This document shows, piece by piece, positions 629 to 30,600 of a DNA stretch of 64,000 nt. A model generated the notes under the pieces. That model saw only the letters and a program-made list of their open reading frames with translations. It was not told where the DNA came from and made no database searches. A program made the position numbers and the translations under genes. Source of the DNA: Candidatus Heimdallarchaeum aukensis (GTDB taxonomy: Archaea > Asgardarchaeota > Heimdallarchaeia > Heimdallarchaeales > Heimdallarchaeaceae); assembly GCA_021513695.1 (NCBI GenBank), contig CP084166.1, positions 608,001-672,000 on the forward strand. The letters run 5' to 3'. Position 1 is the stretch's first letter. Each line of letters begins with the position of its first letter.

Positions 629-1195
629 ATGCTCACATTTAAGATCCTTTTTATAGGCGATAATAGCGTAGGTAAAACTACTTTATTTAAAAAAATTGTT
701 CAAAATGAAAAAAATAAAGAAAAGATCCCTTCTCTAAAAGCAGAAATAGTAAAAGTTTATCGTACAATCCAAGGAGAAGAAGTAGCTTTTGAACTATATG
801 ATTTACCTGCGAGAGAACTTTTATCATCTCCTCAAAGAACAAAATGGTATTTAGGGACTGATGGAGCGTTTATAGTTTTTGACATTACAAAAGCAGAAAC
901 GTTCAGAAGAGTAACATTCTGGCTAGAACAATTAATAAATTATAACAGAAAAGGGAAGATACCTATAGTATTAGTAGGTAATAAAATAGATATGAGAGAC
1001 AATCCTAATGTGAGAAATAGGACACTAAACCCTATAGATGCTCAAGCTTTCTGTCTTCGACTAAATCGTACATCAGCTAGAGAAGGAATTAATAATGAAT
1101 TCTTCGAAGTCTCAGCAATCTCAGGGAAAGGTTTAACTCAATTACTTGATGCATTAGCTAAAAATATTTATAACCATCACAAAAAAATAAAATAG
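629..1195 (+). CDS. Divergent Ras-superfamily small GTPase with non-canonical G3 (DLPARE)
   Basis: Motifs: FIGDNSVGKTT (G1), GNKIDM (G4), VSAISG (G5). G3 reads YDLPARE instead of DxxGQ. The C-terminus is polybasic (HHKKIK). A GAGG-like motif lies about 10 nt upstream of the ATG. Confidence 0.85.
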   Translation: MLTFKILFIGDNSVGKTTLFKKIVQNEKNKEKIPSLKAEIVKVYRTIQGEEVAFELYDLPARELLSSPQRTKWYLGTDGAFIVFDITKAETFRRVTFWLEQLINYNRKGKIPIVLVGNKIDMRDNPNVRNRTLNPIDAQAFCLRLNRTSAREGINNEFFEVSAISGKGLTQLLDALAKNIYNHHKKIK

Positions 1196-1773: not shown

Positions 1774-1831
1774 TTTGAATAGATTTAAATAGTAGTCCAT
1801 TACTACTATAGTAGTAATAGGGCGATTGAGT

Positions 1832-3067
1832 ATGAAATATTGCACAAAATGTGGAACAAAAACACCAGAAGATGCAGTTTTTTGTTATGTATGTGGAACA
1901 AAAATTGATGATCTATCTGTTGATTTACAAAAATCAACAAAGGACAAAGTAAGCGATCACAGACATTACTATCCTCACTCTTCACAACAAATAGATGATA
2001 AATACTACAAAGATTATACCCACAAAGAACACGTTTTTCTTAAAATCTTAGCTATTGTCTTTATAATTGGAATGATCACTGCTTCTATTTCTTTATTTGC
2101 TGTTTTCAGCTCTTTCAGAATGGATGTCATTGGTACTCAAAATTACTATTTAGAAGAAGCAAACTCTAATGAAGTTTTTCTAAATATTTACAACGGTATT
2201 GGAGACATAGACATTATCTTTACTGATGATACAGACATAATGGTCGAAATAAATGTAATCGTATTAGGCAGAAAAAATGTTGATGAGTCAGAATTTGCGG
2301 AATTTAAAATAAATGATTATGAGAAAAATCTTACCATTGAGTTTGATTCTGGAGAACAAATCTTTTCTTTCTTTAATAAGAAAATTCTTGAATATGATAT
2401 TAGCATTACTTTAAACTCTAAACTAGTTCTATATGCAGATGTTCAGATGGAAACGGGAGACTTTTACTTGGACATCAATTGCCAAACAGCTAATATAAAC
2501 AATTTAAATATTGTAACAAAGACAGGTGATGTTAGCATTTATGCATATTCCACGGAAAATGTAACAATCAACAACGTATATCTAGTTTCCACAACTGGAC
2601 AAATTCAGTTTAGTTTAAGTGATGAAGGAGCAAATTACATCAGCAATGTATTTGCAACCACAACCACAGGAAAAATATTTTTCGATTTTGGTAGGAATAG
2701 TATATACAATGGAAATGAAATAGAACTTACAACAACTACAGGAAAAATAGTCCTATACTGCACTAACATGCAATATTTAGAAAATGTTACTTGGTTAATT
2801 TCTACAAGTACAGGTTCGGTTTATGCAAATATCACTCAAGATTTTATCATTGAAAAACAATTACAAATTTCTTTCTTTATTACAGTTAATACTGGGTCAA
2901 TAGAAATTCTTGCTGAATTCCACGATGATATTGGTTACCTTTTCGAAGCAACAACTGATACTGGAACAATTACAATTCCTGAACAATCTCCAAATTATGA
3001 TACTGCTTTAAACAAGTATTATTTTTCCTTAAGCACTGACACTGGAAACATAATGGCAGAATTGTAA
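1832..3067 (+). CDS. Zinc-ribbon / single-TM / DUF4097-like beta-helical repeat protein
   Basis: N-terminal CTKCGTKTPEDAVFCYVCGTKI zinc ribbon, then one TM (FLKILAIVFIIGMITASISLFAVF). After that come repeated [TS]TG-x-[IV]-x-[FIL] strands (TGDVSIY, TTGQIQF, TTGKIFF, TTGKIVL, STGSVYA, NTGSIEI, DTGTITI, DTGNIMA), typical of DUF4097 putative-adhesin repeats. The track start (TTG 1826) is replaced by the ATG at 1832. Confidence 0.7.
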   Translation: MKYCTKCGTKTPEDAVFCYVCGTKIDDLSVDLQKSTKDKVSDHRHYYPHSSQQIDDKYYKDYTHKEHVFLKILAIVFIIGMITASISLFAVFSSFRMDVIGTQNYYLEEANSNEVFLNIYNGIGDIDIIFTDDTDIMVEINVIVLGRKNVDESEFAEFKINDYEKNLTIEFDSGEQIFSFFNKKILEYDISITLNSKLVLYADVQMETGDFYLDINCQTANINNLNIVTKTGDVSIYAYSTENVTINNVYLVSTTGQIQFSLSDEGANYISNVFATTTTGKIFFDFGRNSIYNGNEIELTTTTGKIVLYCTNMQYLENVTWLISTSTGSVYANITQDFIIEKQLQISFFITVNTGSIEILAEFHDDIGYLFEATTDTGTITIPEQSPNYDTALNKYYFSLSTDTGNIMAEL

Positions 3068-4282: not shown

Positions 4283-4380
4283 AAGTAGATTATCTCTATC
4301 TTACTTTTTTTGATGCTTACTAATTTTTCTGCCTAAATTTTATATAGTAGTACCATTTTATCCTCTTAATACAAATACAT

Positions 4381-7275: not shown

Positions 7276-7469
7276 ATTCTTTTTTCTTTTAATTTTCTTT
7301 AATTTTCTTTAACTTTACTATCTAAAAGATCTTGAAATTCAAAATTCTGCAATTTAATTATTTGAAATGAACTGTTTAACGTTTAAATTAAATAATAAAA
7401 GGGTTTAACCGAATCTATTTATTAACTCTTATATAATAGATGATTCCTTAATTTTCAAGGTATTAAACA

Positions 7470-9421: not shown

Positions 9422-9432
9422 GAGTTGAAGTT

Positions 9433-11312: not shown

Positions 11313-13883
11313 ATGTCTTCTAAAGATAAAAAACAATCTTCAGAACTAGAAAAAGCGATATTAGAAGCAAAATCAAGATTACAAAAAGTTGTTTCAAAGA
11401 AAGAAGGAAAATATATAAGAAAAAACGAATTAGAAAATGCGATTAATGAAGCTATTAGGAGTTTAAAACCTGTTTCTGAAGAATTAATTAATAAAAAAAT
11501 GAAAAACAGTGCTTTTAAAGAAGAACTATTAAAAGCAAAGTCTGAACTAAAACAAGTAAAACAAGCAAAGAAGAGAGTAACAAAGAACGAAATGGAATTA
11601 GCTATTAAAGAGGCTATTAAAAATCTAAAACCAATAACTGAAAAAGGAAAAAAACAAATGACTTCAAAAGGAGAACTAGAATTAGCCATTTTAGACGCTT
11701 TTTCTAAACTCATAGAAGTTTCAGAAGAAGAGAAAAACTATGCATTAACTAAAAAAGAACTGGAAATAATAATAAGAGATGCAAAGAGTAAATTGAAAAA
11801 AGTGCCAGGAAAAGAACTTAGGCACGCATTATCTAAAAAAGAGATTGAGCACGAACTAAGAGACCTAAAAAGAAAATTAAAACCTGTTCCAGAACAAGTA
11901 AAAGTTCCAGAACTCTCAGTTAAACAACTTAGAACAGCAATTAAAGAAGCAAAAGTAAGATTAAAACCAGTTCCAGAGAATTTAAAAAGCATAAGTTCTA
12001 TCTCAGTGGGAAGATCAATCAAGAAAGAAGGAGAGAAAATAAAAAGGAAACTTCTTCCAATTCCAGGAGACGCAAAAACTTTTGAAATACAAAATATCGA
12101 ACATATTAAACTCTTTTCTGCAGAAAGATTGGATTTCAAGAAGTTCTTAATAAAACTAGAAAAACAGAAACAACAACCACTACTAAAAATAATAATCAAT
12201 CCAAAAACAAAGTTCTGTAAGATAGAATTAATGAACAAAGATAACCCCACTTCTCCATACAACATTACGGCGGGAGGAGATATTTTAGAATTCACATATA
12301 CTTATCGTTTCTTATTTAAACACGGTTACATAAAAATAGAGAATAACTACCCTCTACTCCTTTCAGATAAACAATGGATTGTGTGGTATCTGAGAGAAAA
12401 AATAGAATTAACTTTCGTGGATATAGCCTTTGCAATGGACGAAACAGTAAGAAACGTGAGAAACTTGTTCAATCAAGCAGAAAAAAGAATAAATCAAATA
12501 CTAGACTTCGTTGTAAATGAAGAGCATTACCAGCTAGTTGCAGCACATGCAATGAAAAGAAAAGGAGTAAGAATACAACAGATTGGAGATACAATAATAG
12601 AGCCAAAAATTACAGAAAAATATCTGATTGAACAACAACAACTAGAAGAGCTAACACATATTGAAGAACTTGAAAAGAAAGTAGAAATACCAAGAGAGTG
12701 GGTAATAAAAACAGCTTATAAAATAGAAACACTAAAGGGAGGATATTATCTGTGGAAAGAGTTTCTAGGAGCACTAAACAAAGATTCCCTGTTGATGATA
12801 GAGAACGACAGCTTACCCCACGAAGAAGAATACTTGATAAACGCAATAGGTTTAGGAGGAGAGATAATTCCTGACATCAAGAGCAACTTCAAAAAACTCA
12901 TAGACATATTCTCAGAAGCTCCAGATGAACTAGTAAAAATAGGAGATACAGCCTTTTTCATGGGTTATATGGATAACATTTATTCTAGCCAATTTTGGAA
13001 TATAAGAAACTTCGTTAAAGGAAACAGGAAAAATTGGAAAAAAGATTTCGTAAAAATAGCAATAAAAGCATATTCAAAAGCTCTAGAAAAAATTAACCCA
13101 GCAGTTTATCCTATAAAGTACGGAGTGCTAAAAAACGATTTAGGAGTGTTCTACTTTTTTCTATCAGAACTAGAGCAAACTAAAAAGAATACTCTAGAAG
13201 CAATCAAAAATATGCAAGAAGCAAAAAATGCATTACCTTTAGAATTCTTTAAAACAAAACATAGCGATATATGCTACAATTTAGGACTAGCCCACTTATT
13301 AATTTCAAAAATAGAAAACAAAGAAGAGAACATAAAACAGGCAATTCTAAATTTCAATTTTGCCCTACAAGGAAGAACATTAAGAATGTACCCTCTAAAA
13401 TACGCGATAACGGAAGTAAATCTAGGAATAGTCTACCAAAAACTGGCAGAAATAGAAGAAACGTCATTAAACTGCACACTAAGTATAGAATCTTATAACA
13501 ACGCTCTACGATCAAACACACTAGACATAATGCCCACAGAAGCAGCAATGATATACAACAACATAGGACTAGCTTATTGCACATTATCAAAAGAACAAGA
13601 AACAGAATACAATATTTCACAAGCATTAATAGTACTAAACGATGCTTTAACAATAAGAAATGAAGCACAGTTCCCAGTTGAATACGCAATAACAACAAGT
13701 ATTTTAGGAAAAGCTTACACAATTTTAGCTACAGTCAAAGAAACAAAAAAGAATTACGAAAAAGCTATATCTGCATTTAACAAAGCAATTAGAATATTTA
13801 TCAAGAAATACGAAGATTTCTATCAAGCTATAATTCATGAAAAGGAGAAAATTGAAGAAAAACTAATAGATATTTCACAATAG
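11313..13883 (+). CDS. Multidomain protein: 9x 28-aa helix-LK[KP]V repeats + sigma70-region-4/LuxR-like HTH + TPR_12-like repeats
   Basis: The N-terminal K/E-rich periodic repeats are listed as a separate feature. The centre has LSDKQWIVWYLREKIELTFVDIAFAMDETVRNVRNLFNQAEKRI, which fits the HTH pattern LSxxxxxVxxL...xxxIAxxxxxSxxTVxxxxxxAxxKL. The C-terminus has 5 or more units of the fP-x-xYA-x-T-x-x-NLG-x-x-Y type, as seen in STAND/CHAT-associated TPRs. Confidence 0.85.
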   Translation: MSSKDKKQSSELEKAILEAKSRLQKVVSKKEGKYIRKNELENAINEAIRSLKPVSEELINKKMKNSAFKEELLKAKSELKQVKQAKKRVTKNEMELAIKEAIKNLKPITEKGKKQMTSKGELELAILDAFSKLIEVSEEEKNYALTKKELEIIIRDAKSKLKKVPGKELRHALSKKEIEHELRDLKRKLKPVPEQVKVPELSVKQLRTAIKEAKVRLKPVPENLKSISSISVGRSIKKEGEKIKRKLLPIPGDAKTFEIQNIEHIKLFSAERLDFKKFLIKLEKQKQQPLLKIIINPKTKFCKIELMNKDNPTSPYNITAGGDILEFTYTYRFLFKHGYIKIENNYPLLLSDKQWIVWYLREKIELTFVDIAFAMDETVRNVRNLFNQAEKRINQILDFVVNEEHYQLVAAHAMKRKGVRIQQIGDTIIEPKITEKYLIEQQQLEELTHIEELEKKVEIPREWVIKTAYKIETLKGGYYLWKEFLGALNKDSLLMIENDSLPHEEEYLINAIGLGGEIIPDIKSNFKKLIDIFSEAPDELVKIGDTAFFMGYMDNIYSSQFWNIRNFVKGNRKNWKKDFVKIAIKAYSKALEKINPAVYPIKYGVLKNDLGVFYFFLSELEQTKKNTLEAIKNMQEAKNALPLEFFKTKHSDICYNLGLAHLLISKIENKEENIKQAILNFNFALQGRTLRMYPLKYAITEVNLGIVYQKLAEIEETSLNCTLSIESYNNALRSNTLDIMPTEAAMIYNNIGLAYCTLSKEQETEYNISQALIVLNDALTIRNEAQFPVEYAITTSILGKAYTILATVKETKKNYEKAISAFNKAIRIFIKKYEDFYQAIIHEKEKIEEKLIDISQ
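11340..12065 (+). repeat. Nine tandem 84-nt (28-aa) coding repeats, consensus [KT]K-x-ELE-x-AI-x-EA-x-x-x-LK[PK]V[PS]E
   Basis: The Leu of the terminal L-K-x-V element falls at protein residues 23, 51, 79, 105, 133, 161, 189, 217 and 247 (counted by hand). Spacings are 28, 28, 26, 28, 28, 28, 28, 30. Confidence 0.85.
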
Positions 13884-14017: not shown

Positions 14018-16018
14018 ATGAAAAGTTTTTTACCTAAATTTCTGCTTAATGAAATCGATCTTTATTTAGATGATTCTCAGAAGTCTATTTTTGAAGAGAA
14101 GGTTAAAAGTATTGTAAGTAATGCTTCTGACTATGATACGATTTCCAAGGACATTACTGCCTTTCTTTTGAATGAAGATTTTACTGATTTAACGACTTAT
14201 GATCAAATGCTTATTCTTGTTTCAATTCTTCTAAATTACTGGAAAAAGGATTATTCTCTTATTTTTAGCATCTATGACAAATTTCATTCTTTTGATTTAC
14301 CTCTTAGCGTTATGATTTGTTTTCTTCTATTTTTTCAAGAATCTTTTGATTTAACCACTTTTAACCTTTGGAGAGAGAAGATAGAAGAGTACATTACAAA
14401 CATTTCTGATTCTACTGAAAAAGAATTTCTTAAAACTGCTATTGAGCAATTTGCTTCTAAGCTTGAGCAAAGGCCTGAGGTTGGTTATCGTTCTATGAAT
14501 CAGCTTATTCGTTCTCTTGAGGAGAATGAGCATATTTCTTATCGATATCCTTTTGTTTTCGAGGCTTTAGAGATTGATCTTATTCAGTACTCTAACATTT
14601 TAGCTGATGAAGTTTTTTCTGAAATCTGGATTGAGTCCGCTAGAAGAAGAGCTGAAGTTATGGAAAACTATGGCATGTTAGTTCAAGTTAACAGCCTTCT
14701 TGCTAGTATTTTAGTTAAAGAGTATCATCTTGAAAAAGCTAAAGAGAAAATTGAGGAGGGGTTAGAGATTGCTAAGAGGATCAATTCTCCTATTTTAGCT
14801 GCTCAAATTGAGTTGAACAAGGCCTTGTTATTGAAGATGCAAGGTAAGTTGGACGAAGCTTTGAAGTTATATGAAAAAATTGCTAAAGTTAAGAATCTTC
14901 CTCAAACTTTTCAATTGGATATTTACAGTAAAATAGGTGAAATTTATCTCAACAAGGACGAGATAGTTAAAGCTGAAGAATACTACCTTAAAGCTCACGA
15001 GATTAATAAGAAACTTAATTTTATCAATCCTCTTGTTGAAATAGTTATAGGTTACATTAACCTGATTTTAGAGAAAGATAAGGGGGAAGCTTTAGATGAG
15101 GGGTTGAAGATTGCTGAAGAACAGTTTGATTTTTCTTCTATTCCTTACTACTACTTCTACAAAGGTATTTATGAGCAACAAAGGGTTAACTTATCCTTAT
15201 CTATTGAATACCTTGAACAAGCTTTGAACTCTTTTGAGCACCAAAAGAACTTTGAGGGTATTGTTTATACTAACGGTGCATTGGCAGAGTCTTATCTTCA
15301 GATTTACAAGCTTCTTCACGATAACAAATATTCTTCTCGGTTCCTCTATTATATTGACAATCTTATTGAAATACTAAAGGAGTTAAACAATCCTTTGTAT
15401 GTTGAAGCAATAAAGACTAAAGCAGGTTACTATTTAGATAAAGGTTTAATTAAAAATGCTGAAGATCTGTTTATTGATGGAATAGAATTTGCTAGGACAC
15501 GAGGATTAAAAGAGGAAGAAATATATCTTAAGGAATCGCTTACTAACAAGAAGAATTTAACAAAAATAACTTTAGAAGGTACTCAAATACTCTTTAGAAA
15601 AATAAGGATGTTCAGCTTTGGTAAGCATAAAACTGTTCCCACCAAATTATACTTACTTTTAGCCATTAATGAAGCTGGAATTCCTTTAGTTTCTCACTCT
15701 TTTACTGAAGAAGAGATGGTAGATGATCTTTTAGTTTCAGGGTTAATTTCAGCTATAATTAATTTCTCTTCTGAAGTTCTAGGAAAAGGAGGAGAAACCT
15801 TACGATCAATAAATCATGAGGGCAAAGCTGTTATAGTAGAGAAAAAGGACAATGTGATGGGTATCTTAGTTGCTGAAGATGAGAATTTCGAGATGAGACT
15901 GGAACTTAGACAGTTTTTGCAGAAAGCGCTTGATAAGTTAGTTTCTGGACTTCCTATTGTCAGAGAAAACGACAGTGAGATTTTTTCTATTATAGAAGAA
16001 GTTTTTGAGAGAAAATAA
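14018..16018 (+). CDS. TPR-like helical repeat protein with C-terminal longin-like alpha/beta module
   Basis: The central region has TPR-like units (e.g. LNKALLLKMQGKLDEALKLYEKIA, IYSKIGEIYLNKDEIVKAEEYYLKAHEI). The C-terminal 125 aa are KLYLLLAINEAGIPLVSHSF..DDLLVSGLISAIINFSSEVLG..TLRSINHEGKAVIVEKKDNVMGILVAED..FEMRLELRQFLQKALDKL. Confidence 0.8.
   Translation: MKSFLPKFLLNEIDLYLDDSQKSIFEEKVKSIVSNASDYDTISKDITAFLLNEDFTDLTTYDQMLILVSILLNYWKKDYSLIFSIYDKFHSFDLPLSVMICFLLFFQESFDLTTFNLWREKIEEYITNISDSTEKEFLKTAIEQFASKLEQRPEVGYRSMNQLIRSLEENEHISYRYPFVFEALEIDLIQYSNILADEVFSEIWIESARRRAEVMENYGMLVQVNSLLASILVKEYHLEKAKEKIEEGLEIAKRINSPILAAQIELNKALLLKMQGKLDEALKLYEKIAKVKNLPQTFQLDIYSKIGEIYLNKDEIVKAEEYYLKAHEINKKLNFINPLVEIVIGYINLILEKDKGEALDEGLKIAEEQFDFSSIPYYYFYKGIYEQQRVNLSLSIEYLEQALNSFEHQKNFEGIVYTNGALAESYLQIYKLLHDNKYSSRFLYYIDNLIEILKELNNPLYVEAIKTKAGYYLDKGLIKNAEDLFIDGIEFARTRGLKEEEIYLKESLTNKKNLTKITLEGTQILFRKIRMFSFGKHKTVPTKLYLLLAINEAGIPLVSHSFTEEEMVDDLLVSGLISAIINFSSEVLGKGGETLRSINHEGKAVIVEKKDNVMGILVAEDENFEMRLELRQFLQKALDKLVSGLPIVRENDSEIFSIIEEVFERK
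15641..16015 (+). other. Longin-like (beta-beta-alpha-beta-beta-beta-alpha) domain, copy 1
   Basis: The order of hydrophobic strand and helix segments, read from the sequence, matches the longin/SNARE-like fold rather than Roadblock (which begins with a helix). It is shared with 25497..25904 and 33719..34033. Confidence 0.5.
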
Positions 16019-16101: not shown

Positions 16102-18084
16102 TTAGGAAACTAAAGGTCTAACTTGATACTTTAGTCCTATAATTTTCATTATATCTACTGCATCTTCAATGGTGTTTGCTGATACTTCTAGTTCTTCAAT
16201 TATTTGATCTATATAGAGTATTTCTACTGTACTCATCTTTTCTGTCTCTGGAAGAAGTTTTTCTAGAGCTTTATGATTATTTATGTCTAATTCATGTTCT
16301 ATAGCATGTACATCGTTAAATATTGGATGAGAAGCAAGTGGTTGAATGCATACTACTTCTAATACTTCTACTGCTTTGTCGATCAAGTCGCATAGTAAAT
16401 CACACTCTTTTCTCAAGTATTGGGCAAAATAATCTTCTATTTTCTCTCTTGGAATATAGAGTATTTTCCTTAGAGAGCGTAAGATGTAACCTATCGCTTT
16501 ATCGAGTGTTGTTGTAAGTTTGTAAAAGTGGTAGTCATCTGGAGCAGGTCTAACACTGCTGTACATTACTTGAGTAACCTTAAATACAAGATCATCTGCA
16601 CGCCTTTCTTCTTCTTTTGCTTCCCTCATAAGTTTAATGGCTTGTTCTTTATCGCCATCCAAATATTTCTTAAATGACTGAGCTAGTAAATGAATTGTTT
16701 TCTGTACTTTTTCTGCGTGTTTTATTGAATGAGAGGCTTGCACCCATCCTGGTCTTGTTTCTATTGCTAATATTAAGAATGATAAGCCAAGAATGATTAA
16801 TAGTATTCCACTTACTAAGAAAGGAAATTTGAAGACATTACTAACTACACTATTGCCTAGAAACTGTAATGATTCAAAATTTACTACTAGTCCTGCTAAA
16901 CCGAGTACAAGTAAAGGTCCAGTGAAGTAGCCTGAATCTAAAGATGAGCGATAAACACCTATACTTTTTTCTCTTTTTATTATAGGAACAACATCCTTTG
17001 TTATACTTGGAAGAGAAGGATAATACAGAGAAGTACCTAGTCCAGCAAGCAAAGTTAATAATACTACAACTCCAAAAACATCAGTGAATATAATCAGTAT
17101 AATACTAGATCCAGCAAGAATAAATCCAAGTATCATAGGTGTTTTTCTTCCAATTCTATCGCTTAATTTACCCGTGAAAGGCATACTTATTGACCAAGCT
17201 AAAGTGAAAACTGAGGTGGCTATACCAATTTGTACATTAGAAAAACCGTAAACAGTTGATAATAGGAGCGGAAAAATCAAAACTAGAATACTATCTGTTA
17301 TTCTAGAAATGTGTCCTCCCAAATTTGCTAAGATTAGTGTTGGAACTCTAAAAATATTTTTTGTACTCCATCTACTTTCCACTTTTGTTGCATCCAACAG
17401 TACTGAATCTTTTGTTCCTGCAACCAGATCTGTAGTTTCTACATTCTTAATAAATACAAAACCAAAAGCTAGAGCTGTTCCTGCAATTATTAAAGCAAAG
17501 ATGAAAGTTTCAGCAAAACCTAAGTTATTTGCTATCACACCTGCTAAGAATGAACCTAAACTTGAGCCTAAGTACACTGAAAATTCCATTGAACCCACTG
17601 AAAAAGCTGCTCCTTCGTAACCTGCAATATCAGTGAGTGCTGACATAGTCGAAGTAAAGAGTAAACCTAATCCCCCTCCGATGAAAGCGTTACCTAAAGG
17701 TAAAGCCCATAAGTTTCTTGAAAATGCTAAAGCGAATGAACCACAAAGAAGCAATATTAGTCCTATTCTAATAGTCCATTTTCGTTGATATTTGTCACTA
17801 ATAGATGAGCTAAAGAATCCTGCTATACCTTTAAATAGCCCATAAGCTATTACAGCAGAAGATATTTGGAGAAAAACTATGAAACTTTTTTGGAAATTTT
17901 CTTTTGATTCAAAGAGAGGAAAATCGGTAAATGATTCACCAAAGAGAGAAAGAGAGGTTCTTTGAACACCATAAGCTATACCTGCAAAAAGTAGTACAGT
18001 AATTATTGGTCCCCACTTGGAGATAGACTTTAAAAATGAGAAACTTTCCAGCTTTTTTTCTTTCATTTCCATACAATTATTCAA
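16102..18084 (-). CDS. MFS transporter fused to a C-terminal PhoU_div/DUF47-like helical domain
   Basis: Twelve-TM-like profile with MFS motif A in both halves (SDKYQRKWTIRIG, LSDRIGRKTPMILG). The C-terminal ~210 aa are soluble and helical: KLMREAKEEERRADDLVFKVTQVMYSSVRPAPDDYHFYKLTTTLDKAIGYI, resembling the DUF47 pattern E-x-E-x-x-AD...P-x-D-x-x...L-x-x-x-LD-x-I. Confidence 0.75.
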   Translation of the reverse strand: MNNCMEMKEKKLESFSFLKSISKWGPIITVLLFAGIAYGVQRTSLSLFGESFTDFPLFESKENFQKSFIVFLQISSAVIAYGLFKGIAGFFSSSISDKYQRKWTIRIGLILLLCGSFALAFSRNLWALPLGNAFIGGGLGLLFTSTMSALTDIAGYEGAAFSVGSMEFSVYLGSSLGSFLAGVIANNLGFAETFIFALIIAGTALAFGFVFIKNVETTDLVAGTKDSVLLDATKVESRWSTKNIFRVPTLILANLGGHISRITDSILVLIFPLLLSTVYGFSNVQIGIATSVFTLAWSISMPFTGKLSDRIGRKTPMILGFILAGSSIILIIFTDVFGVVVLLTLLAGLGTSLYYPSLPSITKDVVPIIKREKSIGVYRSSLDSGYFTGPLLVLGLAGLVVNFESLQFLGNSVVSNVFKFPFLVSGILLIILGLSFLILAIETRPGWVQASHSIKHAEKVQKTIHLLAQSFKKYLDGDKEQAIKLMREAKEEERRADDLVFKVTQVMYSSVRPAPDDYHFYKLTTTLDKAIGYILRSLRKILYIPREKIEDYFAQYLRKECDLLCDLIDKAVEVLEVVCIQPLASHPIFNDVHAIEHELDINNHKALEKLLPETEKMSTVEILYIDQIIEELEVSANTIEDAVDIMKIIGLKYQVRPLVS

Positions 18085-20182: not shown

Positions 20183-22399
20183 TTACCCTAATACTAGTTC
20201 TTTTTCTGGTTTTGACTTCTGTTTAGTCTTTTTTGTATCTATTGTTTTTTTCTCTATTTCTGTATCTTTTTTCTTAACTATATCATCTTTCTGTTGATCT
20301 AGGGATGTTTCTACTTTCTCTTTCTTTTCTTTAATATACTTAGCTTCTTCTACACTTACTTCTTCTGTCTCTTTTGTATCATTTTGTTGTTTTTTCTCTT
20401 TGATTTCTTCTTTAGAAGGAACAACTTTTTTTGAAATCCTCTCTTTTCTAGTATCTTTTGCTTCTTGTCTCGTTTCTTTTTTTACCTTTGTCATTATTTT
20501 AGGTTCTGACTTTTGTTCTTTCTCTTTTTCTAGTTCTTCAACTATTTTAATTTGCATTTCTTTTTTGACTCTTTCATATAAATTGACTGACCAAGGTAAA
20601 TTCTCTTGAATTGAAATATTAGAGAGAGAACGAAGAATCTCTATAACAAATTTTTTCTGTGTTTCCTTGTTACTTGAAAGCTTGTTATATGCATTTGACA
20701 AAATAGAATAAACTTTTTCTTCCTCAGTGTAAAGAAACAACATATTTCTGATTACTGTTGAAAGATCTCTATTTTTCTCAAATTGGAAAATGTTCTTGCA
20801 TATTATATCTTCAAATACTTTTTTAAGGGTAGAATCATTTTTTTCTACTGTTTTTAGATCAAAACAAGTTTGAATACTTTCAATAGTTAAGTTTTGTAAA
20901 GAGTTAGAAATGAAACCCTTTTTTTGATTTAATGTTGTGATTACTCCATTTAGGAAGTTTGTGCTCAAGGTTTCTGCGCAAATAGATAACAGTTCATTTT
21001 TTTGATTAGTAAAAACTAATTCACTCTTTAGATTTTGTAAAATGACTACAACTTCTTCTACATCAAAGTCTCCTGAAATCTTGTTTTTTATTGATTCCTC
21101 TGAAAAGAATACTGAATAATAATAGAATTTTTCACTTAACTCTGATAACGTAGGATCTTTACTTTTATTCATATCTTTTATATTCATTGAAAGTGCAACT
21201 AACAACCCTCGAATAATTTTTTCAAAATCTCTTTTTTCTTCTTCTTTTGAAACTTGGAGTTTAAATAACATTATAATTAGTTTATTGATTTGTAAAAGAA
21301 CTAGTTCTTTTTCTTTTAATGTTAAATCTGATAACTCGGTATCTATTGCAATTACTGATTTATCTAATAAAAAGTTTAGATTTTCTCTTGTCTTTGAATT
21401 AAGTTTGCTTTCTTTACCTAAAGCATGAAAATAAGCAAAAGTGCTAATAGCAAATAAATTAATTCTCTCTTCTAGTCTATTTAAAAAAACTTCAAAGTTT
21501 CTAACTATTTTATCTAATTTTTCTTCAGGTTTATCTTGCTGCTCTAAACCTATTTTAAAGCTATTTAGGTAGTCTATTGAACATTTTGAAGAAAAGATGT
21601 ACAATATTGTTGGATAAAAAGTTAGATATTCAAGGAGCTCTTTCTTAATCAAATTAATGTCAAAGAAATAGTTAGATGCTCCCATTAAAAGTGCAAAATC
21701 AGTAAGAAATTGTGCTTTCTCAATAGGTAAAAATTTTAACAAATCGTTTTCTAAATACTCAAATCGAATGAGTTTTCTTCCGCAAGAAGGGCAAGACTCT
21801 TCATTAACTATTTTTTGTCCACATATTGAGCATAAAACAGTCTTTTTTCTTATTTGTATTCCACATTGATTACAATAATTGCTGTCAGGGTGATTAGAAG
21901 AATCACAGTTTAAACATTTAACAACCTTAAAAGAAGGTTTTTCTTTTCTTTCAAAGTATTCTTCTTTTTGTTCTTGTTCGATACTTGTCTCTTTCTGGTG
22001 AATGTCAAATTTTAAACCACAATATTTACAAAAACGAGCGTTTGGAGGATTAACAGTTTGACAGTTTGAACAAATCAAAATGTTTGGTTCACTTTTTTTC
22101 TCTGTAAATCTTGCACCACATTGGGTACAAAATTTTGCATCAATTTTTTGCATAGATCTACAAAAAGGACAAGCTTTTGTCTGTGAGCTACTTTTATTTT
22201 TCTTGTTTCTTTCATTAGCAAAGTTGTATCCACATTTAGAACAAAACAGAGCTTCATTTCGAACATATTTCTGACAAACAGGACATTGTTTAAGAAGTGT
22301 ATATTCAGTAGGAGTATCGATTTTATTTCCACAGTGAGTACAATAAGAAACTTCTTTTTTATTCAGAAGACCACATCTATTGCACATCTTTTGTATCAT
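20183..22399 (-). CDS. Protein with six N-terminal zinc ribbons, a long helical body and a K/E-rich tail
   Basis: There are six CxxC-x(9-14)-CxxC units in residues 6-208: CNRC..CTHC, CPVC..CSKC, CPFC..CTQC, CSNC..CKYC, CLNC..CNQC, CSIC..CPSC. The C-terminal ~125 aa are dominated by K/E. Confidence 0.8.
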   Translation of the reverse strand: MIQKMCNRCGLLNKKEVSYCTHCGNKIDTPTEYTLLKQCPVCQKYVRNEALFCSKCGYNFANERNKKNKSSSQTKACPFCRSMQKIDAKFCTQCGARFTEKKSEPNILICSNCQTVNPPNARFCKYCGLKFDIHQKETSIEQEQKEEYFERKEKPSFKVVKCLNCDSSNHPDSNYCNQCGIQIRKKTVLCSICGQKIVNEESCPSCGRKLIRFEYLENDLLKFLPIEKAQFLTDFALLMGASNYFFDINLIKKELLEYLTFYPTILYIFSSKCSIDYLNSFKIGLEQQDKPEEKLDKIVRNFEVFLNRLEERINLFAISTFAYFHALGKESKLNSKTRENLNFLLDKSVIAIDTELSDLTLKEKELVLLQINKLIIMLFKLQVSKEEEKRDFEKIIRGLLVALSMNIKDMNKSKDPTLSELSEKFYYYSVFFSEESIKNKISGDFDVEEVVVILQNLKSELVFTNQKNELLSICAETLSTNFLNGVITTLNQKKGFISNSLQNLTIESIQTCFDLKTVEKNDSTLKKVFEDIICKNIFQFEKNRDLSTVIRNMLFLYTEEEKVYSILSNAYNKLSSNKETQKKFVIEILRSLSNISIQENLPWSVNLYERVKKEMQIKIVEELEKEKEQKSEPKIMTKVKKETRQEAKDTRKERISKKVVPSKEEIKEKKQQNDTKETEEVSVEEAKYIKEKKEKVETSLDQQKDDIVKKKDTEIEKKTIDTKKTKQKSKPEKELVLG

Positions 22400-22576: not shown

Positions 22577-24934
22577 ATGAAAAAACGAACGAACATTAAA
22601 AAAATAAATTTCATATTGTTCTTAATTTTTGTTCTTTTTGCAAGTTTTGCAATTGAACATGTTACAATAAAAGCTTCAGATAGCACCAACATAGGAAACC
22701 AGAAACATTTCGTTGATGACAACGCTGAGATCTTAATTATTTCAGATAATGATTTTGTTAAATATGGTTTTCCAGGGGATGGTTCTGTAGATAATCCATA
22801 TATTATCAGCAACCTAGATTTAAATACATCGAAAATGTTTGGTATATTTATTTCTAATGTAAGTTCATATTTTGTAATAGAAAACTGTTTTATTAGATCT
22901 TCTTATTACGGAATATCAGTTAGTGGTCTTGAAGAAAACAGAGCTACTATAAGAAACAATACCTTTTACAAAAGTATTGTAGCTGTTGAAATTAGCCATT
23001 CTCCAGGAATAACAATAATTAACAATAATTTCACTGAAAACAGAGATTATGGGATTTTTATTGAATATTCACCTGATTCCGTTTTGAACTCAAATTACTT
23101 TTTCAAGAATGGCGTGGGTTATTCCGGAAATGGTCTAATTATTAAAGAATCTGAAAATTCAACAATTACCAATAACTCTTTTGTTAGGGATGGTTTAGCT
23201 ATAGAGCCCTCAAATTTTGACATTAAATTGAGCTTATTTAATAATACAGTTAATAATAAACTAATTGGCTACTTCACTAAACAGAACAATATAGTAGTAG
23301 ATCAGTCTATTTATGGTCAAATACTTATCATTGAATGCTCAAATGTTTTTATTTCAAATCAAACGATTTCAGAAACTAATGTTGCTATTTCTGTTTATAA
23401 CTCAAATAGTATACTTATTTCAAATAATACTCTTATGAGCAATGATAAAGGGATTTTCTTATTTCAAACCTATGACTTTGCAATAGAGAGAAACTTTCTA
23501 GAAAATAATTCATTGAATGGATTAGAAATCAACGATTGTACTAAATTCAACATCGTAGATAATGAGATAATCAACAACAGGAAAGGGATTGAGTTATTTA
23601 TTGTCGATGGTTACTCAATTTCTAACATTAATAAGAACACAATTAAGGAGAATTTAGAAGAAGGACTTTCATTAAACACTGTAAATAATTTAAACATAAG
23701 CGAGAATTTCATATACAAAAATTTAGTAGGAATATATGCTTATTATTCTTCTAATGTCTATATAGTTGCTAATTCATTTGAAGTTAATTACCTTTATGCT
23801 ATAACTTTAATGGAAAGTGTAAACAACTTCTATATTTATTATAATCTCTTTGCAACCAATAATCTTGAAAACAAAAACGAATCCCAGTGTTTAGATAATG
23901 GAGTAAATAATCTATGGTACAATCCAGATACAGAAAAAGGAAATTATTGGACAGATCTTAATGACCAAAAGGTTTACTCAATAGGAGGTTCTGCAGGAAG
24001 TATTGATGCATATCCTATGGACCCATTTATAGTCGATTATCCTCCTTTATTTAATTGGCAACTTTACCTGATTCTTCCACTTACTTTAACAACCCTTTTA
24101 TCTGCAGGAGCTTATTTCTTGATCAAAAAAAGAGAAAGAAGAAATTCCAATCTTTCTGATTACAAGAAAGAGCTGAAAAAAGAGAAAGAGTGGGCTAGTG
24201 CTATTACAGAGAAAAAAGATAAAGTAGGTTCTCCAATTAGTAATCTAAACAAACAGATTAGAAAACATTTGGTAAAGAACTTTTCTAAATGGTTTATAGT
24301 AGGTTCAATTTCAGTACTTGTTATTAGCTCTGGATTTTTAGCTTACAAACTTTCGGTCTCTCCTGATAATACTAACCAAAACGGTGCAATGGTAAAATAT
24401 GCCCAAGCTCTTCAACAATCTATTCCTGAAGCTGTCTATATAGAGATTATAGGTAATGCTACATCGGCAATACATGAGAGTTTAATGGATGCACATATTT
24501 ATCGTATAAGCCCCTATCCAGATTTGACTTGGGAAGTTACAGCTAATATTCTCAAATTTGATGATGAAGGAAGAGCTTACCTTGAAGAAATTTCTTTCAC
24601 TCTCGACAGTTATGTAATTGATGAAATCGGACAAAATCTCTTCGAATCTCTCAACAACACCGTGATTTTAGGACATTACGGAGAAAAACCCTACAACGAT
24701 GAAGATACTTACAACATAAATATTAAATGGGGTTTAAGATTTTTCTTGGAAAATACTACAATAATTGAGTTGATTGTACTAGAGAATGGTCTTGTAGTAT
24801 ATGCAAAAGGCTACTGGGTAACTTTTTCTAATTATTCAACAAACATGATCGGAGCTTTAATTATTGGACCAGAATCTGCTTTTGACAATACTATTCGAAT
24901 TCTAAGAGAGATTTTTGAGGAAAATATAAATTAG
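22577..24934 (+). CDS. Secreted/membrane-anchored right-handed parallel beta-helix (PbH1/NosD-like) repeat protein
   Basis: N-terminal signal/anchor (INFILFLIFVLFASFAI). About 15 repeats of roughly 22 aa have N-x-[IF]-x-x-N and G-I-x-[IL] patterns (ISHSPGITIINNNFTENRDYGIFIEYS, etc.). There are many N-x-S/T sequons and two later TM segments that flank a basic loop. Confidence 0.8.
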   Translation: MKKRTNIKKINFILFLIFVLFASFAIEHVTIKASDSTNIGNQKHFVDDNAEILIISDNDFVKYGFPGDGSVDNPYIISNLDLNTSKMFGIFISNVSSYFVIENCFIRSSYYGISVSGLEENRATIRNNTFYKSIVAVEISHSPGITIINNNFTENRDYGIFIEYSPDSVLNSNYFFKNGVGYSGNGLIIKESENSTITNNSFVRDGLAIEPSNFDIKLSLFNNTVNNKLIGYFTKQNNIVVDQSIYGQILIIECSNVFISNQTISETNVAISVYNSNSILISNNTLMSNDKGIFLFQTYDFAIERNFLENNSLNGLEINDCTKFNIVDNEIINNRKGIELFIVDGYSISNINKNTIKENLEEGLSLNTVNNLNISENFIYKNLVGIYAYYSSNVYIVANSFEVNYLYAITLMESVNNFYIYYNLFATNNLENKNESQCLDNGVNNLWYNPDTEKGNYWTDLNDQKVYSIGGSAGSIDAYPMDPFIVDYPPLFNWQLYLILPLTLTTLLSAGAYFLIKKRERRNSNLSDYKKELKKEKEWASAITEKKDKVGSPISNLNKQIRKHLVKNFSKWFIVGSISVLVISSGFLAYKLSVSPDNTNQNGAMVKYAQALQQSIPEAVYIEIIGNATSAIHESLMDAHIYRISPYPDLTWEVTANILKFDDEGRAYLEEISFTLDSYVIDEIGQNLFESLNNTVILGHYGEKPYNDEDTYNINIKWGLRFFLENTTIIELIVLENGLVVYAKGYWVTFSNYSTNMIGALIIGPESAFDNTIRILREIFEENIN

Positions 24935-25493: not shown

Positions 25494-27419
25494 TTAATTA
25501 ATATATGTTAGAATGAAAGAATCTTGTATAAGATCTTCTATTTTCTTTTCTTCTATTTTGTCAAAAAACTTACCTGTTTTTGGAATGGAAGTTAGTTTAT
25601 GCCATAATTCCTCGAATTTTCCAATGTTATTAACAAAGTTATCTATCTTTTTATTGGCAGTGAAAGAAGAGCCTTTGAACACATAACAAAAGATTATTCC
25701 TTCCTTGTTTTTGAACGTCAAAAAGTAGTCATGATATTCTACTTGCTTGATTGAACCTTCTGTTGCTAAAACCTCTTTTAATATGTTATTTAAAGCAGAA
25801 AGGAATCCTGAAAATAGAATACTGTCATATTTCTCCTCACTAAAGTTATAACTGTAAAGTGGTATTCCATGTTCATTTAGAATAAGCAACATAACTGGAG
25901 TGTCTTTTTCTATTACTTCGAGTTCGTAGCTAACCCTTTGTATCATCTGCGAAACTAAAGTGTCAACTTGTGTTTTTTCTATTCTTTTCTTTATACTCAC
26001 ATCAGAATTAAGAATTGCTTTCCATTTATTATGTTCTCTTACAATTGAATCATATTCTAAACTTATTTTTTGAGCTAAATTGTCTAATCCTTGAGAAAAA
26101 GCTATCTCCTGCGCTTTTAATAAATCCTCTTGAGCTTCATCAAGATTTAGTTGAATTAGATTAATCTTTCCTTTTAACCAGTAAGCTTCTGCTAAGAGAG
26201 ACCTAGATATTTGCATTTCTGCAATTTTTAATAGCTGAATGTTTATATCCTTTAGTTCATCTATAATTTCGCTTTCATTAAAAATAGTAAGCTCTTCTAG
26301 CAATATTTCAGTAAGGTTTAACATCGCATGAATATTTATCTCATTGTAAATTTCATTCGTTCTAATAATAGAATGAAGAAGAGAGATAGCTTTCGCTTGT
26401 GAAACAAATCTTTTTCGCTCTTTTAATACACTTGCTTCTGTTAGTTTAGCATAAAAACTCAAAAACTTGTTTTTTTCCTTTCTAGATAATTTTTTTAATT
26501 CTTTCAAGTATTCCTGAGCTTTCGATATTTGCCCTAGTAAAATGTGTAACTTAGTCAAATAATAGGTGGATTCAGCTATAATATAGTTAAATTTAACTAA
26601 TTTTGCATAATTTATACTTTTATCGAAAAAATCTAAAGCTAGATTAAACTCTCCTTTACTGAAATAAACGATGCCTATATTATTGAAAACTTGTGAAATT
26701 CCAAAAATATTTTCTTTTTCTTGATAGTTAATTAAAGCATCGTTATATAGTTCAACCGCTTTATTTAGATTTCCTTTTAATCTATAAATCTCACCTATAG
26801 AAATTAAAGTATTGTTAATTATTTGCTTCGAGTTTAAAAATTCACCATAAACAAGACACTCTTCAAAACAAGCAAGGCTTTGATTTAGATTTCCTTTTTG
26901 GGCATTTATTTTTCCTTCTCTATATTTTAAAAAAGCATAAATTTTGGTCTCATTCTTCTCTTTAACTAATTGTAAAGATTTTTTTACTAAATTCAGTGCT
27001 CGTGGTAGATCTTTATAGATAACCAGTAAAGCTTGGCAGAGATTGAAAATGGCATTAACTTCATTTTTATCTTTCTTAATTACCTTTGATTTTGTTTTTT
27101 TGAAGTGTAATAAAATTTCTTCACTTTTTTTGTTTTGTGATAAAAGGAGAGAAAAAACCTCTATCAAATAATAGTAAACATAGAAATCATTAGCCATAAG
27201 TTCTTTCTCATTTTCAAGGTAACTTAAAAGTTGAAGGCCAAATACTTTGCAATCCTCTACTTTACCAAACTCATAAGCTGTTTCAACTTTGTGATTTAAT
27301 AAACTTCTTTTTTCAATTGAAGGTTGTTTTCTCTCTTCTTCATGGTTATTTATTTGGGTAATAATTTCAGAATATTTGGTTGAATCTAGAATTTTTTCGT
27401 TTTCTATGAAATCTATCAC
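25494..27419 (-). CDS. TPR repeat protein with C-terminal longin-like module (paralogue of 14018..16018)
   Basis: Multiple canonical TPRs (e.g. ISIGEIYRLKGNLNKAVELYNDALINY, NNIGIVYFSKGEFNLALDFFDKSINYA). The C-terminus is PVMLLILNEHGIPLYSYNF..DSILFSGFLSALNNILKEVL..GSIKQVEYHDYFLTFKNKEGIIFCYVF. Confidence 0.85.
   Translation of the reverse strand: MIDFIENEKILDSTKYSEIITQINNHEEERKQPSIEKRSLLNHKVETAYEFGKVEDCKVFGLQLLSYLENEKELMANDFYVYYYLIEVFSLLLSQNKKSEEILLHFKKTKSKVIKKDKNEVNAIFNLCQALLVIYKDLPRALNLVKKSLQLVKEKNETKIYAFLKYREGKINAQKGNLNQSLACFEECLVYGEFLNSKQIINNTLISIGEIYRLKGNLNKAVELYNDALINYQEKENIFGISQVFNNIGIVYFSKGEFNLALDFFDKSINYAKLVKFNYIIAESTYYLTKLHILLGQISKAQEYLKELKKLSRKEKNKFLSFYAKLTEASVLKERKRFVSQAKAISLLHSIIRTNEIYNEINIHAMLNLTEILLEELTIFNESEIIDELKDINIQLLKIAEMQISRSLLAEAYWLKGKINLIQLNLDEAQEDLLKAQEIAFSQGLDNLAQKISLEYDSIVREHNKWKAILNSDVSIKKRIEKTQVDTLVSQMIQRVSYELEVIEKDTPVMLLILNEHGIPLYSYNFSEEKYDSILFSGFLSALNNILKEVLATEGSIKQVEYHDYFLTFKNKEGIIFCYVFKGSSFTANKKIDNFVNNIGKFEELWHKLTSIPKTGKFFDKIEEKKIEDLIQDSFILTYIN
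25497..25904 (-). other. Longin-like domain, copy 2
   Basis: It aligns by eye with copy 1: hydrophobic strand + G-I-P-L-x-S/Y-x-x-F, then D-x-(I/L)-L-x-SG-(L/F)-(I/L)-SA-(I/L)-x-N, then G-x-(L/I)-(R/K)-x-(I/V)-x-(H/Y). Confidence 0.5.
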
Positions 27420-27679: not shown

Positions 27680-30600
27680 ATGAAAAAGAAGACAATAACT
27701 TTGATCTTTATACTGTTAATAATGATTCAAGTATCTTCTTTATTTATAGAAACAGAAGCTTCAAATTACATATATACTCAACTTAAGTGGAGAAAAATAT
27801 CAAGCTACAATTATGGAGAAGCTTCTTTCTTTGACTATGATAAAGACGGAAAATTAGATGTTTTTTTTAAAACAGCAGAAGGCATAGAAATTTACAATCA
27901 TAAAGGAAATCTATTAAAGAAAATTCATGGTTATTTCCAATATACCCCCACAATTACAGACCTAGAAAAAGATGGAGATTTAGAGTTTATTACTCAAAAC
28001 TACTATGGAATAGAAATATACGATTCTACCGGACAATTAAAAGAACAGAACTTAACTTTATATAGTGCCTACGCGAGAATTGTGGTTGCAGACATTAACA
28101 ATGACGGGATACAAGAAATAATTTATCATTCCACAGGTGATATAATATGCTTCAACAATCAATTAGAAGAAATTTGGAGCTATAAATTTGAAAATCCAGA
28201 CTATTATGGAAGTATTTATGATCTCGTAGTTAATTCAGATGCAGATTCTGAAAAAGAAATTGTAGTTTATTATGACAACTCGATTTATCTATTTAATACA
28301 GATGGTGAAAAAAAATGGTCAAAATCCTTACCTTCTGAAGGAATTGTCGCTTATGATTTTAATGATGATGGTATAGATGAAATAATTGGAACCAAATCAT
28401 CAGATTACACAATTTACTCTTTAAACAGTCAAGATGGTTCTGAATTGTGGATTAATGAAATGGCTGTAAACTTAAACCCTTTGCCTATTGACCTTGATCA
28501 AGATGGAATTGTAGAATTAATAGCTCTTTCTACTGATAATGACAAGTCTGAATCTTATATTAATTATATCAATGGAAAAACAGGAGAAGTAGAAGAACAG
28601 GTAACTGTAGATCAAAGATTCTTTACTAATTCATATTACGAATTCTTTCCTGAAACTCCAGCTGTAGGAGATTTTGATGGTAATGGGGTGTTGGACCTTA
28701 TCTTTCTTGCTTTTTCATATGCTTATAGTGTTGCTACACTGATTTATTCTGCAGATGGGTATAGAATAGCAGAATTTGACGAGGGTTCACTAACAACTCC
28801 AACAATTGTTGACCTGGATGGTAATGGAAGAACAGAAATAATGATACGTGATTATTCAGGAATATTCTGCTATGAGGTTACTGGATCAACTTCTGGAAAA
28901 AATATCTGGTATAAAGAAAGAGGAAATATAGCTAATACAATGGTAGTAGATACAGATGGAGACTTGCTAGATGATATAAGCGAAGAATTTTATGGTTCAG
29001 ATAAAGGAAAAGAAGATACTGACGGTGATACCCTTTTAGACGGAATAGAGATAATTGGTTCTGGTTCTTCACCTATAAAACAAGACACTGATGGAGATGG
29101 TTTAACAGATGATGTTGAATATGAATTAGGTTTCAACCCAAGATTAAATGACTTAGATTTGGATTATGATGATGATAGTTTAACCAATTATGATGAAGTA
29201 TTTGTTTATTCAACAAATCCTATGTCTAATGATACAGATAACGATTTACTACTTGATAATGAAGAAATTAATACTTATGGAACGTCTCCAACAAACAACG
29301 ACACAGATGCAGATGGTGTTATTGATGGAGAAGAAGTACATACTTACGGAACATCACCATTAGATAATGATTCAGATGACGATGGAATGGAAGACGGATA
29401 TGAAGTCTTATACAACTTAGATCCTCTTGTAAATGATAGTTATGGAGATATTGACTCAGATGGTTTGTTAAATATTGAAGAGTTTACATACAATTCAAAC
29501 AGTTCAAATGTAGACACAGATAATGACACAATTTCAGATGGTGATGAAGTTCATACTTATGGAACGTCTCCAACAAACAATGATTCTGATGGAGATAATC
29601 TCACAGATAATGAAGAAATTTATACTTATGGAACGTCTCCAACAAACAACGACACAGACGCAGATATTATGTGGGATGGTTGGGAGATTGAATATGGATT
29701 TAATCCCTTAATCGACGATGGAGATGAAGATTTAGATTCTGACGGTCTTTCCAATGCTGAAGAATTTATTTATTCAACAGAGCCTAACAATACTGACTCA
29801 GATTCTGACCAACTCCTTGATGGAGAAGAAGTACATACTTATGGAACAGACCCTGCTAAAATTGATAGTGACGAGGATGAGCTTACTGATTATGAAGAAG
29901 TTATAGTTTATACAACAAATCCTGTGTCTAACGATACTGATAATGACTTAATGGGTGATTATTATGAGGTTAATCATGGTTTAAACCCCCTTGTAAACGA
30001 TACTTTAGGCGATCTTGACAATGATACTCTAACAAATTATGAAGAATTTTTACTTGGTACTTTACCTAATAACAATGATACTGATGGAGATGGAATGAGT
30101 GATGGTTTTGAGTATCAATATGGACTAATTTTAACTGACAATGATTCTTCATTGGACAAGGATAAGGATGGTTTATCTAACCTTGACGAATTTTTACATA
30201 ATACCAACCCTCTCTCTAATGATACTGATGGAGATGGAATGTTTGATGGTTTTGAAGTGCAATATAACCTTAACCCAAATTTAAATGATTCTGCAGGAGA
30301 CCCTGATGCTGATGGAATATCAAATATTGATGAAATGAAATATGGTTCATCACCAATTAGCTCTGATACAGACAGTGACCGTCTAACCGATCCTGAAGAG
30401 ATATTCATCTATCACTCTAATCCTGCAATAAAAGATACAGATGGAGATGGTTTAGAAGATGGAGAAGAAGTACTTGATTTTGGTACAAGCCCAACTAACG
30501 AGGATACAGACGGGGACACTCTTAGTGACTATGTAGAGATTTATGTTTTCCTCACTGACCCAACAGACCCTGATACAGATAACGATGGAATGAATGATGG

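Follow-up and report, generated by a model that had tools for sequence, protein, structure and literature searches.

The C-terminal part of a tetratricopeptide repeat (TPR) protein from Candidatus Heimdallarchaeum aukensis is, judging by its predicted structure, very probably a true longin domain (SNARE-like superfamily), and in the protein family to which it belongs one longin type is shared by TPR scaffolds of the cytosol and by surface and membrane proteins, which carry it on their cytoplasmic side. The DNA analysed here ("the window") is a stretch of 64,000 nucleotides from contig CP084166.1 of assembly GCA_021513695.1 (positions 608,001 to 672,000, G+C about 30%), and the protein, of 666 amino acids (aa), is encoded on its + strand by an ATG-start open reading frame (ORF) at 14018..16018, stop codon included. 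The eukaryotic regulators of Rab, Arf and Rag, and vesicle adaptors as well, have longin domains at their core; the original prediction, made from the letters of the window, had seen in the last ~125 residues of this protein a longin-like module that recurs three times in the window, and had suggested a regulator or adaptor of small GTPases.

The longin domain (aa 544-666; 15647..16015, + strand) was delimited from the elements of an AlphaFold2 model. Calculated for aa 536-666 with an alignment of 53 diverse modules, this model reached a predicted local distance difference test (pLDDT) value of 86.9 and a predicted template-modelling score (pTM) of 0.83; an earlier model from nine sequences had a pLDDT of 57 with the first two strands unformed, and was left out of the fold searches. 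The topology is ββ-α-βββ-α-α around a five-stranded antiparallel sheet, with strands β1 (544-551), β2 (556-561), β3 (597-600), β4 (603-610) and β5 (613-619), helices α1 (570-588), α2 (624-642) and α3 (653-664), and no helix N-terminal to β1. The ββαβββα order read earlier from the sequence equals the model strand for strand, the third helix being the only addition. The Foldseek comparison proposed as a check was run and gave a longin-type result: the best matches of the model were MON1A, COPI, AP sigma and TRAPPC1, with template-modelling scores of 0.65-0.73 for TRAPP longins versus 0.51-0.59 for the Roadblock domains of Ragulator, and structural alignments spanning 110-121 residues for longins versus 88-99 for Roadblocks. 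TRAPP and Mon1 longins also outscored adaptor longins, and in the model the module appears to resemble most closely, in shape, the core longins of TRAPP and the first longin of Mon1/Fuzzy.

Sequence profiles point the same way. Among the 53 diverse modules, the Pfam family Fuz_longin_1 (the first longin of FUZ/MON1/HPS1) matched 19 (best E 1.1e-6), Intu_longin_1 four, and Sybindin (E at least 0.03) and Robl_LC7 two each, and no unrelated family recurred; a 43% identical ortholog, P0010, scored 25.6 bits against Fuz_longin_1, for which the cut-off is 26.1. An alternative would be a Roadblock/LC7 domain of the MglB-like kind, acting in the manner of MglB or of the LAMTOR subunits, but Fuz_longin_1 is matched by about ten times more modules than Robl_LC7, and the Roadblock alignments are the shorter ones. 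By the distinction drawn in PMC10933270, a module with no helix ahead of β1 and with two C-terminal helices has the longin arrangement, and because the N-terminal helix is missing we assign the module to the longins and not to the Roadblocks. Three family members (P0009, P0020 and P0095) start with Met directly at β1, and the C-terminal helix is conserved, with F663 present in 93 of 118 modules; the domain can therefore be regarded as complete without an N-terminal helix. A Roadblock identity is, on this evidence, scarcely to be expected.

The remainder of the protein bears out its description as a TPR protein. A TPR/MalT-like solenoid extends over aa ~228-500 (14699..15517, + strand; Pfam TPR_2, TPR_1 and TPR_12), in which the repeats at aa ~228-340 exceed the Pfam cut-offs (TPR_2, 31.0 bits against 27; TPR_1, 28.3 against 27.8), TPR_MalT matches below threshold, and the rest of the solenoid, to aa ~500, is predicted by homology to be helical. 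Besides the TPRs, nothing in the protein scored above the Pfam thresholds. An identical protein is present on Logan contigs in the same gene context.

The module occurs exactly three times in the window. The second copy (aa 509-641; 25497..25895, - strand; located by BLASTP and independent profiles) ends a second TPR-longin protein of 641 aa at 25494..27419 on the - strand, in which TPR_12 scored 57.4 bits (cut-off 30.1), TPR_MalT 45.0 bits (cut-off 45) and, over aa 510-582, Fuz_longin_1 14.6 bits, below its cut-off. The third (aa 878-1012; 33632..34036, - strand; BLASTP and profiles) lies in a surface protein of 1077 aa at 33434..36667 on the - strand, which consists of an N-terminal hydrophobic signal or anchor, an ectodomain of ~790 aa with 35 N-x-S/T sequons, a transmembrane segment (aa 827-856; 34100..34189, - strand; from hydropathy and sequence), the longin domain and a C-terminal tail of ~65 aa (aa 1013-1077; 33437..33631, - strand), defined by its sequence pattern. 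An RKRK motif directly follows the transmembrane segment, and by the positive-inside rule the C-terminus is therefore cytoplasmic; the placement of this copy on the cytoplasmic side stands, but it does not form the very end of the protein, as had been supposed, since the tail comes after it. The tail has no Pfam match and looks winged-helix-like in its pattern of residues. A protein in the public collection, P0014, is near-identical to this surface protein.

The C-terminal modules of the two TPR proteins align directly (BLASTP E 6e-9, 30% identity over 89 aa), and that of 14018..16018 aligns to aa ~904-957 of the surface protein (E 2e-4). As a check on circularity, two profiles were built solely from modules of other organisms: one of the TPR class (59 modules, close relatives and every membrane-class member excluded) and one of the membrane class (28 modules). 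The TPR-class profile detects the surface-protein copy at E 7e-12 and the membrane-class profile detects both TPR proteins at E ~1e-20; the longin domain of 25494..27419 scores E 2e-43 and 2e-20 with the two profiles, and that of the surface protein E 1e-42 with the membrane-class profile. Among the 239 ORFs of the window no other scored with either profile. Pairwise alignments and independent profiles thus agree on the recurrence and on the number of copies. A further TPR protein of the window (56020..57513, + strand; 497 aa, TPR_12 at 130 bits) is without the module; it matches the TPR region of 25494..27419 (BLASTP 3e-13 over aa 94-495), and is a paralog which lost the longin domain or never possessed one. 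Just upstream of its gene are two adjoining ORFs of 154 and 149 aa (54988..55920, - strand), neither with a Pfam match.

A profile search run exhaustively over 1.84 billion representative proteins (clusters at 50% identity) recovered 2,894 with E<=1e-3, of which 334 had E<=1e-10; word-indexed homolog searches with a single module or with a 5- or 53-sequence profile recovered 5-9 proteins each. All 11 cluster members with a named organism are from Heimdall-, Loki- or Helarchaeota, so far confining the family to Asgard archaea, as far as sampled. Its members are annotated as "hypothetical protein" or "tetratricopeptide repeat protein", and NCBIfam contains no model for the family.

In 119 aligned modules the most conserved residues are G554 (109/119), G575 (113/119) and A579 (113/119), accompanied by [YF]558, F562, D569, L572, [SG]574, [FL]576, I580, F583, E586 and I598. 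The motif that the original prediction had drawn from the three window copies is contained in these conserved columns and proves to be the signature of the family. The most conserved stretch, D-x-x-L-[IV]-[SG]-G-[FL]-[LI]-x-A-I-x-x-F-x-x-E, falls at the start of α1, the first half of which is conserved around its whole circumference, on the core-facing residues as well as on a small-residue face formed by S/G574, G575, T/S578 and A579. The β1-β2 turn carries a G-x-P motif, with Pro556 present in 51 of the 119 modules (43%). No column holds an invariant Arg; the best reaches 64/119, and the window copy has Ser at that position.

Architecture classes were read from 159 family sequences, each of which carries one module. 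More than half (85/159) are soluble proteins of 450-820 aa with the module at the extreme C-terminus, and of 70 long soluble members scanned, TPR_12 was found in 67 and TPR_MalT in 60. About 20 of the 159 have a transmembrane segment ~45 aa ahead of the module and a tail of ~75 aa behind it; this group includes surface proteins of 1,000-2,774 aa, and bacterial immunoglobulin-like (Ig-like) domains occur in two surface proteins of the transmembrane class that have no tail. The membrane-class tail spans 70-85 aa, is conserved in pattern among members, and reads as a putative winged helix. About six of the 159 are multi-pass membrane proteins that carry the module at the C-terminus, and in three the module is joined to a Roadblock-like domain. 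When the 119 modules were clustered, sub-families followed architecture, and the three window copies (types w1 for 14018..16018, w2 for 25494..27419 and w3 for the surface protein) fell into three of them: a TPR cluster of 62, a cluster of 16 with transmembrane segment and tail, and a TPR cluster of four. The w2 module belongs to the largest, nearly all of whose members are TPR proteins, and the w3 module to that of 16, made up solely of proteins with transmembrane segment and tail.

Some members of the family show further features. The metagenomic proteins P0009, P0020 and P0095 (246-249 aa), which have no Pfam match, consist of the family longin from Met1 and a second domain of ~115 aa, read as helix, two strands, helix and three strands, an order that suggests a Roadblock; this two-domain layout recalls the solved Loki Roadblock-Longin protein 8yqg. 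The RPN7 (PCI-associated) model matches 30 of the 70 TPR-longin proteins and the α-SNAP model 19 (best 2.8e-17), in both cases probably through generic repeat similarity. An identity as STAND/MalT-type nucleoside triphosphatases (NTPases) was also considered and rejected; neither the two window TPR-longin proteins nor the Heimdall paralogs contain a Walker A motif, and no NTPase match was found with Pfam.

Ca. Heimdallarchaeum endolithica PR6, whose genome is complete, encodes a full-length ortholog of the protein at 14018..16018 with 88% identity; full-length orthologs of 43% identity occur in 12 other Heimdall metagenome-assembled genomes (MAGs), and relatives of 24-30% identity over TPR region and module in about 23 Thor and Promethearchaeota MAGs. 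Of the 12 more distant Heimdall loci, 10 have a row of two or three TPR-longin genes that point the same way, with gaps of 20-75 bp; the ortholog comes last in the row, and each paralog measures ~670-700 aa. Such a layout is typical of the subunits of one complex. The tight tandem, of three and sometimes two paralogs, is seen at most of loci L004-L015 (for example L005, 3210..9458, with paralogs at 3210-5252, 5323-7398 and 7434-9458), and at all 12 of these loci a signal-peptide protein of ~625 aa with no Pfam match lies convergently downstream. An Eco57I-like methylase is found divergently upstream of the tandem at eight loci, and the window encodes one at 41024..43123. At four Heimdall loci (L004, 1081..1593 on the - strand, and three others) an ORF of 171 aa close to the tandem contains LVCSIFDEEIGPVVIY, which looks like the GP motif of FLCN/NPRL2-type longins (PMC12290439); this ORF has no Pfam match.

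What the domain may do in these proteins can be approached through its relatives. In the summary of Levine et al. (2013) given in PMC10933270, the dimers formed by longin and Roadblock domains act as small-GTPase platforms that are conserved between bacteria and eukaryotes; because all characterised longin and Roadblock proteins behave in this way (PMC10933270), we infer pairing and a platform for a small GTPase or another partner for the present family too, and lean slightly towards a platform model, in which the domain would dimerise, connect TPR scaffolds with membrane proteins and probably provide a docking site for small GTPases. Under this model each longin would pair with a second longin through helix α1 and the sheet edge, so that TPR scaffolds would be linked with one another and with membrane proteins that have a longin tail. 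The pair of longins would then offer a docking surface for a small GTPase or another partner, the TPR solenoids would serve as arms binding cargo or further proteins, and the longin-tailed surface and membrane proteins would be the membrane docking sites; a small GTPase might be regulated, by guanine nucleotide exchange factor (GEF) or GTPase-activating protein (GAP) activity, scaffolded or merely recruited. Pairing fits two observations, namely the tandem paralogs and the conservation of α1, including its small-residue face; conservation on both the core and the small-residue faces is what a helix-helix interface would give.

Several observations weigh against this platform model or against the fold on which it is built. 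The window copy at 14018..16018 stays under the Pfam cut-off for every longin family (its best, Fuz_longin_1, at 14.8 against 26.1 bits), and searches of PDB sequences with family profiles gave no longin match significant alone: BET5, the best longin, ranked second at E 0.086 and in correct register, behind an aminotransferase at E 0.0042, MON1A scored E 1.1-1.9, and the C-terminal helices drew spurious de-novo helical bundles. There is one longin domain here versus three in Mon1-type GEFs. In Heimdallarchaeum the two TPR-longin genes form no tandem, being 9.5 kb apart on opposite strands. Nor does gene order connect the module to small GTPases: the two GTPases of the window, at 2..547 and 629..1195, are 13 kb from 14018..16018 and outside its operon, with unrelated genes between them (YdjM, an aminotransferase, a P-type ATPase, an ABC transporter and an 856-aa repeat protein), and a search of ±8 kb at 38 Heimdall, Thor and Promethearchaeota loci, by phmmer with the window GTPases and by a scan for G1/G3/G4 motifs, found no Ras-like GTPase gene. 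An operon with small GTPases can thus be ruled out for these loci.

The original prediction had described the two window GTPases as Rab-like and Arf-like. The Rab-like part of this holds and the Arf-like part does not, both proteins scoring best as Ras/Rab-like (108 and 91 bits, versus 42 and 53 bits as Arf-like). Asgard genomes hold dozens of Ras-like GTPases, so that the presence of two in the same window as the module says little. Asgard GTPase genes generally lie outside operons of Roadblock or longin genes (PMC10933270). All things considered, direct involvement of the family with small GTPases is possible, and to us somewhat doubtful. At 19 Thor and Promethearchaeota loci (within L018-L040; for example L026, 9030..10691) a gene for a 554-aa EF-Tu-family GTPase, with GTP_EFTU, domains 2 and 3 and an N-terminal extension of ~120 aa, lies directly downstream on the same strand; neither the Heimdall loci nor the window contain it. 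This protein was discarded as evidence of a GTPase link, being of the translation-factor type and absent from the Heimdall loci; we regard its position as lineage synteny.

In a more elaborate version of the platform model, the TPR-longin paralogs, present as a three-gene tandem in most Heimdall genomes, would form a hetero-oligomer by way of their longins, dock on the longin-winged-helix tails of surface and membrane proteins, and recruit or regulate Rab/Arf-like GTPases at the membrane; this version strikes us as improbable. If true, prokaryotes would have had a "solenoid + longin" machine close to the origin of eukaryotic GEFs of the TRAPP/Mon1-Ccz1 type, or else of the AP/COPI adaptor cores, and cargo-like surface proteins would have been coupled to GTPase switches before endomembranes existed.

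Two other explanations retain the longin fold and assign it a different role. The module might be the output of a signalling or sensor system independent of GTPases, in which the proteins with transmembrane segment, longin and winged helix would be receptors and the TPR-longin proteins their cytosolic partners; the tail would bind DNA or a partner, and the longin would oligomerise or bind a small ligand, as in GAF/PAS-like folds. The receptor-like layout of ectodomain, one transmembrane segment, module and helix-turn-helix-like tail, kept in about 20 of the top matches, speaks for this, as do the MalT-like TPR region, which is typical of prokaryotic signalling proteins, the missing GTPase linkage at the 38 loci and the documented fusions of Asgard longins to two-component domains (10.1101/2020.10.19.343400). 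These proteins contain, however, no kinase, receiver or nucleotide-binding domain and no Walker A motif, the winged-helix label of the tail comes from its sequence pattern alone, and the nearest structural relatives are all longins of trafficking or of GTPase platforms; we consider a signalling role rather unlikely.

A proto-adaptor or coat-like role is the second of these. AP/COPI-F adaptor halves consist of a large solenoid subunit plus a sigma or mu longin, and the TPR-longin paralogs might by analogy form a heteromer of adaptor type, by which the cytoplasmic tails of surface proteins would be recognised. The three-paralog tandems of the Heimdall MAGs and the α-SNAP family matches in 19 of 70 TPR regions would fit such a proto-adaptor, but the latter, like the RPN7 matches, probably amount to generic repeat similarity. 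TRAPP and Mon1 longins resemble the module more closely than adaptor longins do, the only recurrent sequence signal is Fuz_longin_1 and not Clat_adaptor_s, adaptor solenoids are HEAT/ARM-like with their longins on separate polypeptides, and no appendage or mu-homology domain is present; this role is, in our judgement, very unlikely.

Upstream by 134 bp and co-directional with 14018..16018 is the gene for the 856-aa repeat protein (11313..13883, + strand), which has ~8 N-terminal repeats of ~28 aa with the pattern K-x-E-L-E-x-A-I-x-E-A-x-x-x-L-K-P-V and a TPR-like C-terminus, and whose homologs were seen solely in the Heimdallarchaeum loci L001-L003. Its identity as a degenerate tandem paralog was ruled out, there being no BLASTP similarity to any TPR-longin protein. 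Downstream, 16102..18084 (- strand) encodes an MFS_1 transporter fused to a PhoU_div (DUF47) domain, and a gene of this kind is found 2-5 kb downstream of the ortholog and on the opposite strand at at least eight Heimdall MAG loci and in H. endolithica. Double zinc ribbons (DZR) occur in the products of 20183..22399 (- strand), 27680..31624 (+ strand) and 1826..3067 (+ strand); one of these is a 1314-aa surface protein of FG-GAP/TSP3 repeats with its DZR at the C-terminus, and thus gives a further example of a small cytoplasmic module borne by a large surface protein. A beta-helix/NosD protein is encoded nearby (22577..24934).

The interpretation we rate best is that the family represents a known fold within a known Asgard expansion, in architectures that are widespread and uncharacterised. 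The question on which it bears is the origin of the eukaryotic longin machines from Asgard precursors. It offers clonable candidates, namely a pair of soluble proteins together with a receptor-like protein from the same genome, and the three-gene tandems of sister lineages, and these bear on heterotypic longin pairing, on the binding of membrane-protein tails and on small-GTPase action in Asgard archaea. If the domain only dimerises, the family marks domain shuffling among Asgard signature proteins and current views are unchanged.

The expansion itself is well documented. The first Loki genome encoded 41 longin-like domains (PMC4917890), the Roadblock/LC7 superfamily comprises 130 Asgard clusters of orthologous genes (asCOGs), with most of its multidomain architectures absent from eukaryotes (10.1101/2020.10.19.343400), GTPase-longin fusions exist in Asgard archaea (PMC10933270), and Asgard longins have been found joined to Vps28-C and to the adaptin appendage, with accessory TPR, Ig-like and HTH/PCI domains (PMC10936438). 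In the literature searched, which did not cover the asCOG tables, we found no description of families with TPR and a C-terminal longin or with transmembrane segment, longin and winged helix. The earlier statement that a TPR-longin fusion is not a described family therefore holds in so far as no paper on it was found, and has to be read beside the published expansions and fusions of Asgard longins. Identity with the Vps28-C/adaptin-associated longin proteins (PMC10936438) was ruled out because neither domain is among the 25 commonest Pfam families in 70 TPR-class members.

Comparison with the characterised longin systems places the family close in fold and apart in architecture. The FLCN/NPRL2/SMCR8 longin GAPs and their Asgard relatives with a GP motif have the longin fold in common with it, together with a conserved glycine in the β1-β2 turn, often as G-[LI]-P. 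FLCN-type GAPs, however, have an adjacent G-P, an arginine finger and a DENN/NPRL C-terminal domain, and the window family is without these; an identity as a longin of this type was ruled out, with no GP motif (PMC12290439) and no Arg finger in the 119 modules. The tri-longin Rab GEFs (Mon1-Ccz1, Fuzzy-Inturned of CPLANE and HPS1-HPS4 of BLOC-3), in which the first longin of Mon1/Fuzzy/HPS1 is Pfam PF19036, are obligate heterodimers joined by their first longins and exchange nucleotide on a Rab; they carry three consecutive longins per subunit, whereas the window proteins carry one, and the N-terminal ~530 aa of the TPR-longin protein are TPR or helical. The core longins of TRAPP (TRAPPC1/Bet5 and TRAPPC4/Trs23) are close in fold, with a sequence match that is not significant (Sybindin, 2/53); they are stand-alone subunits of ~140-220 aa flanked by Bet3-family subunits, whereas the longins of the window are found at the end of a TPR protein of 640-670 aa or behind a transmembrane segment.

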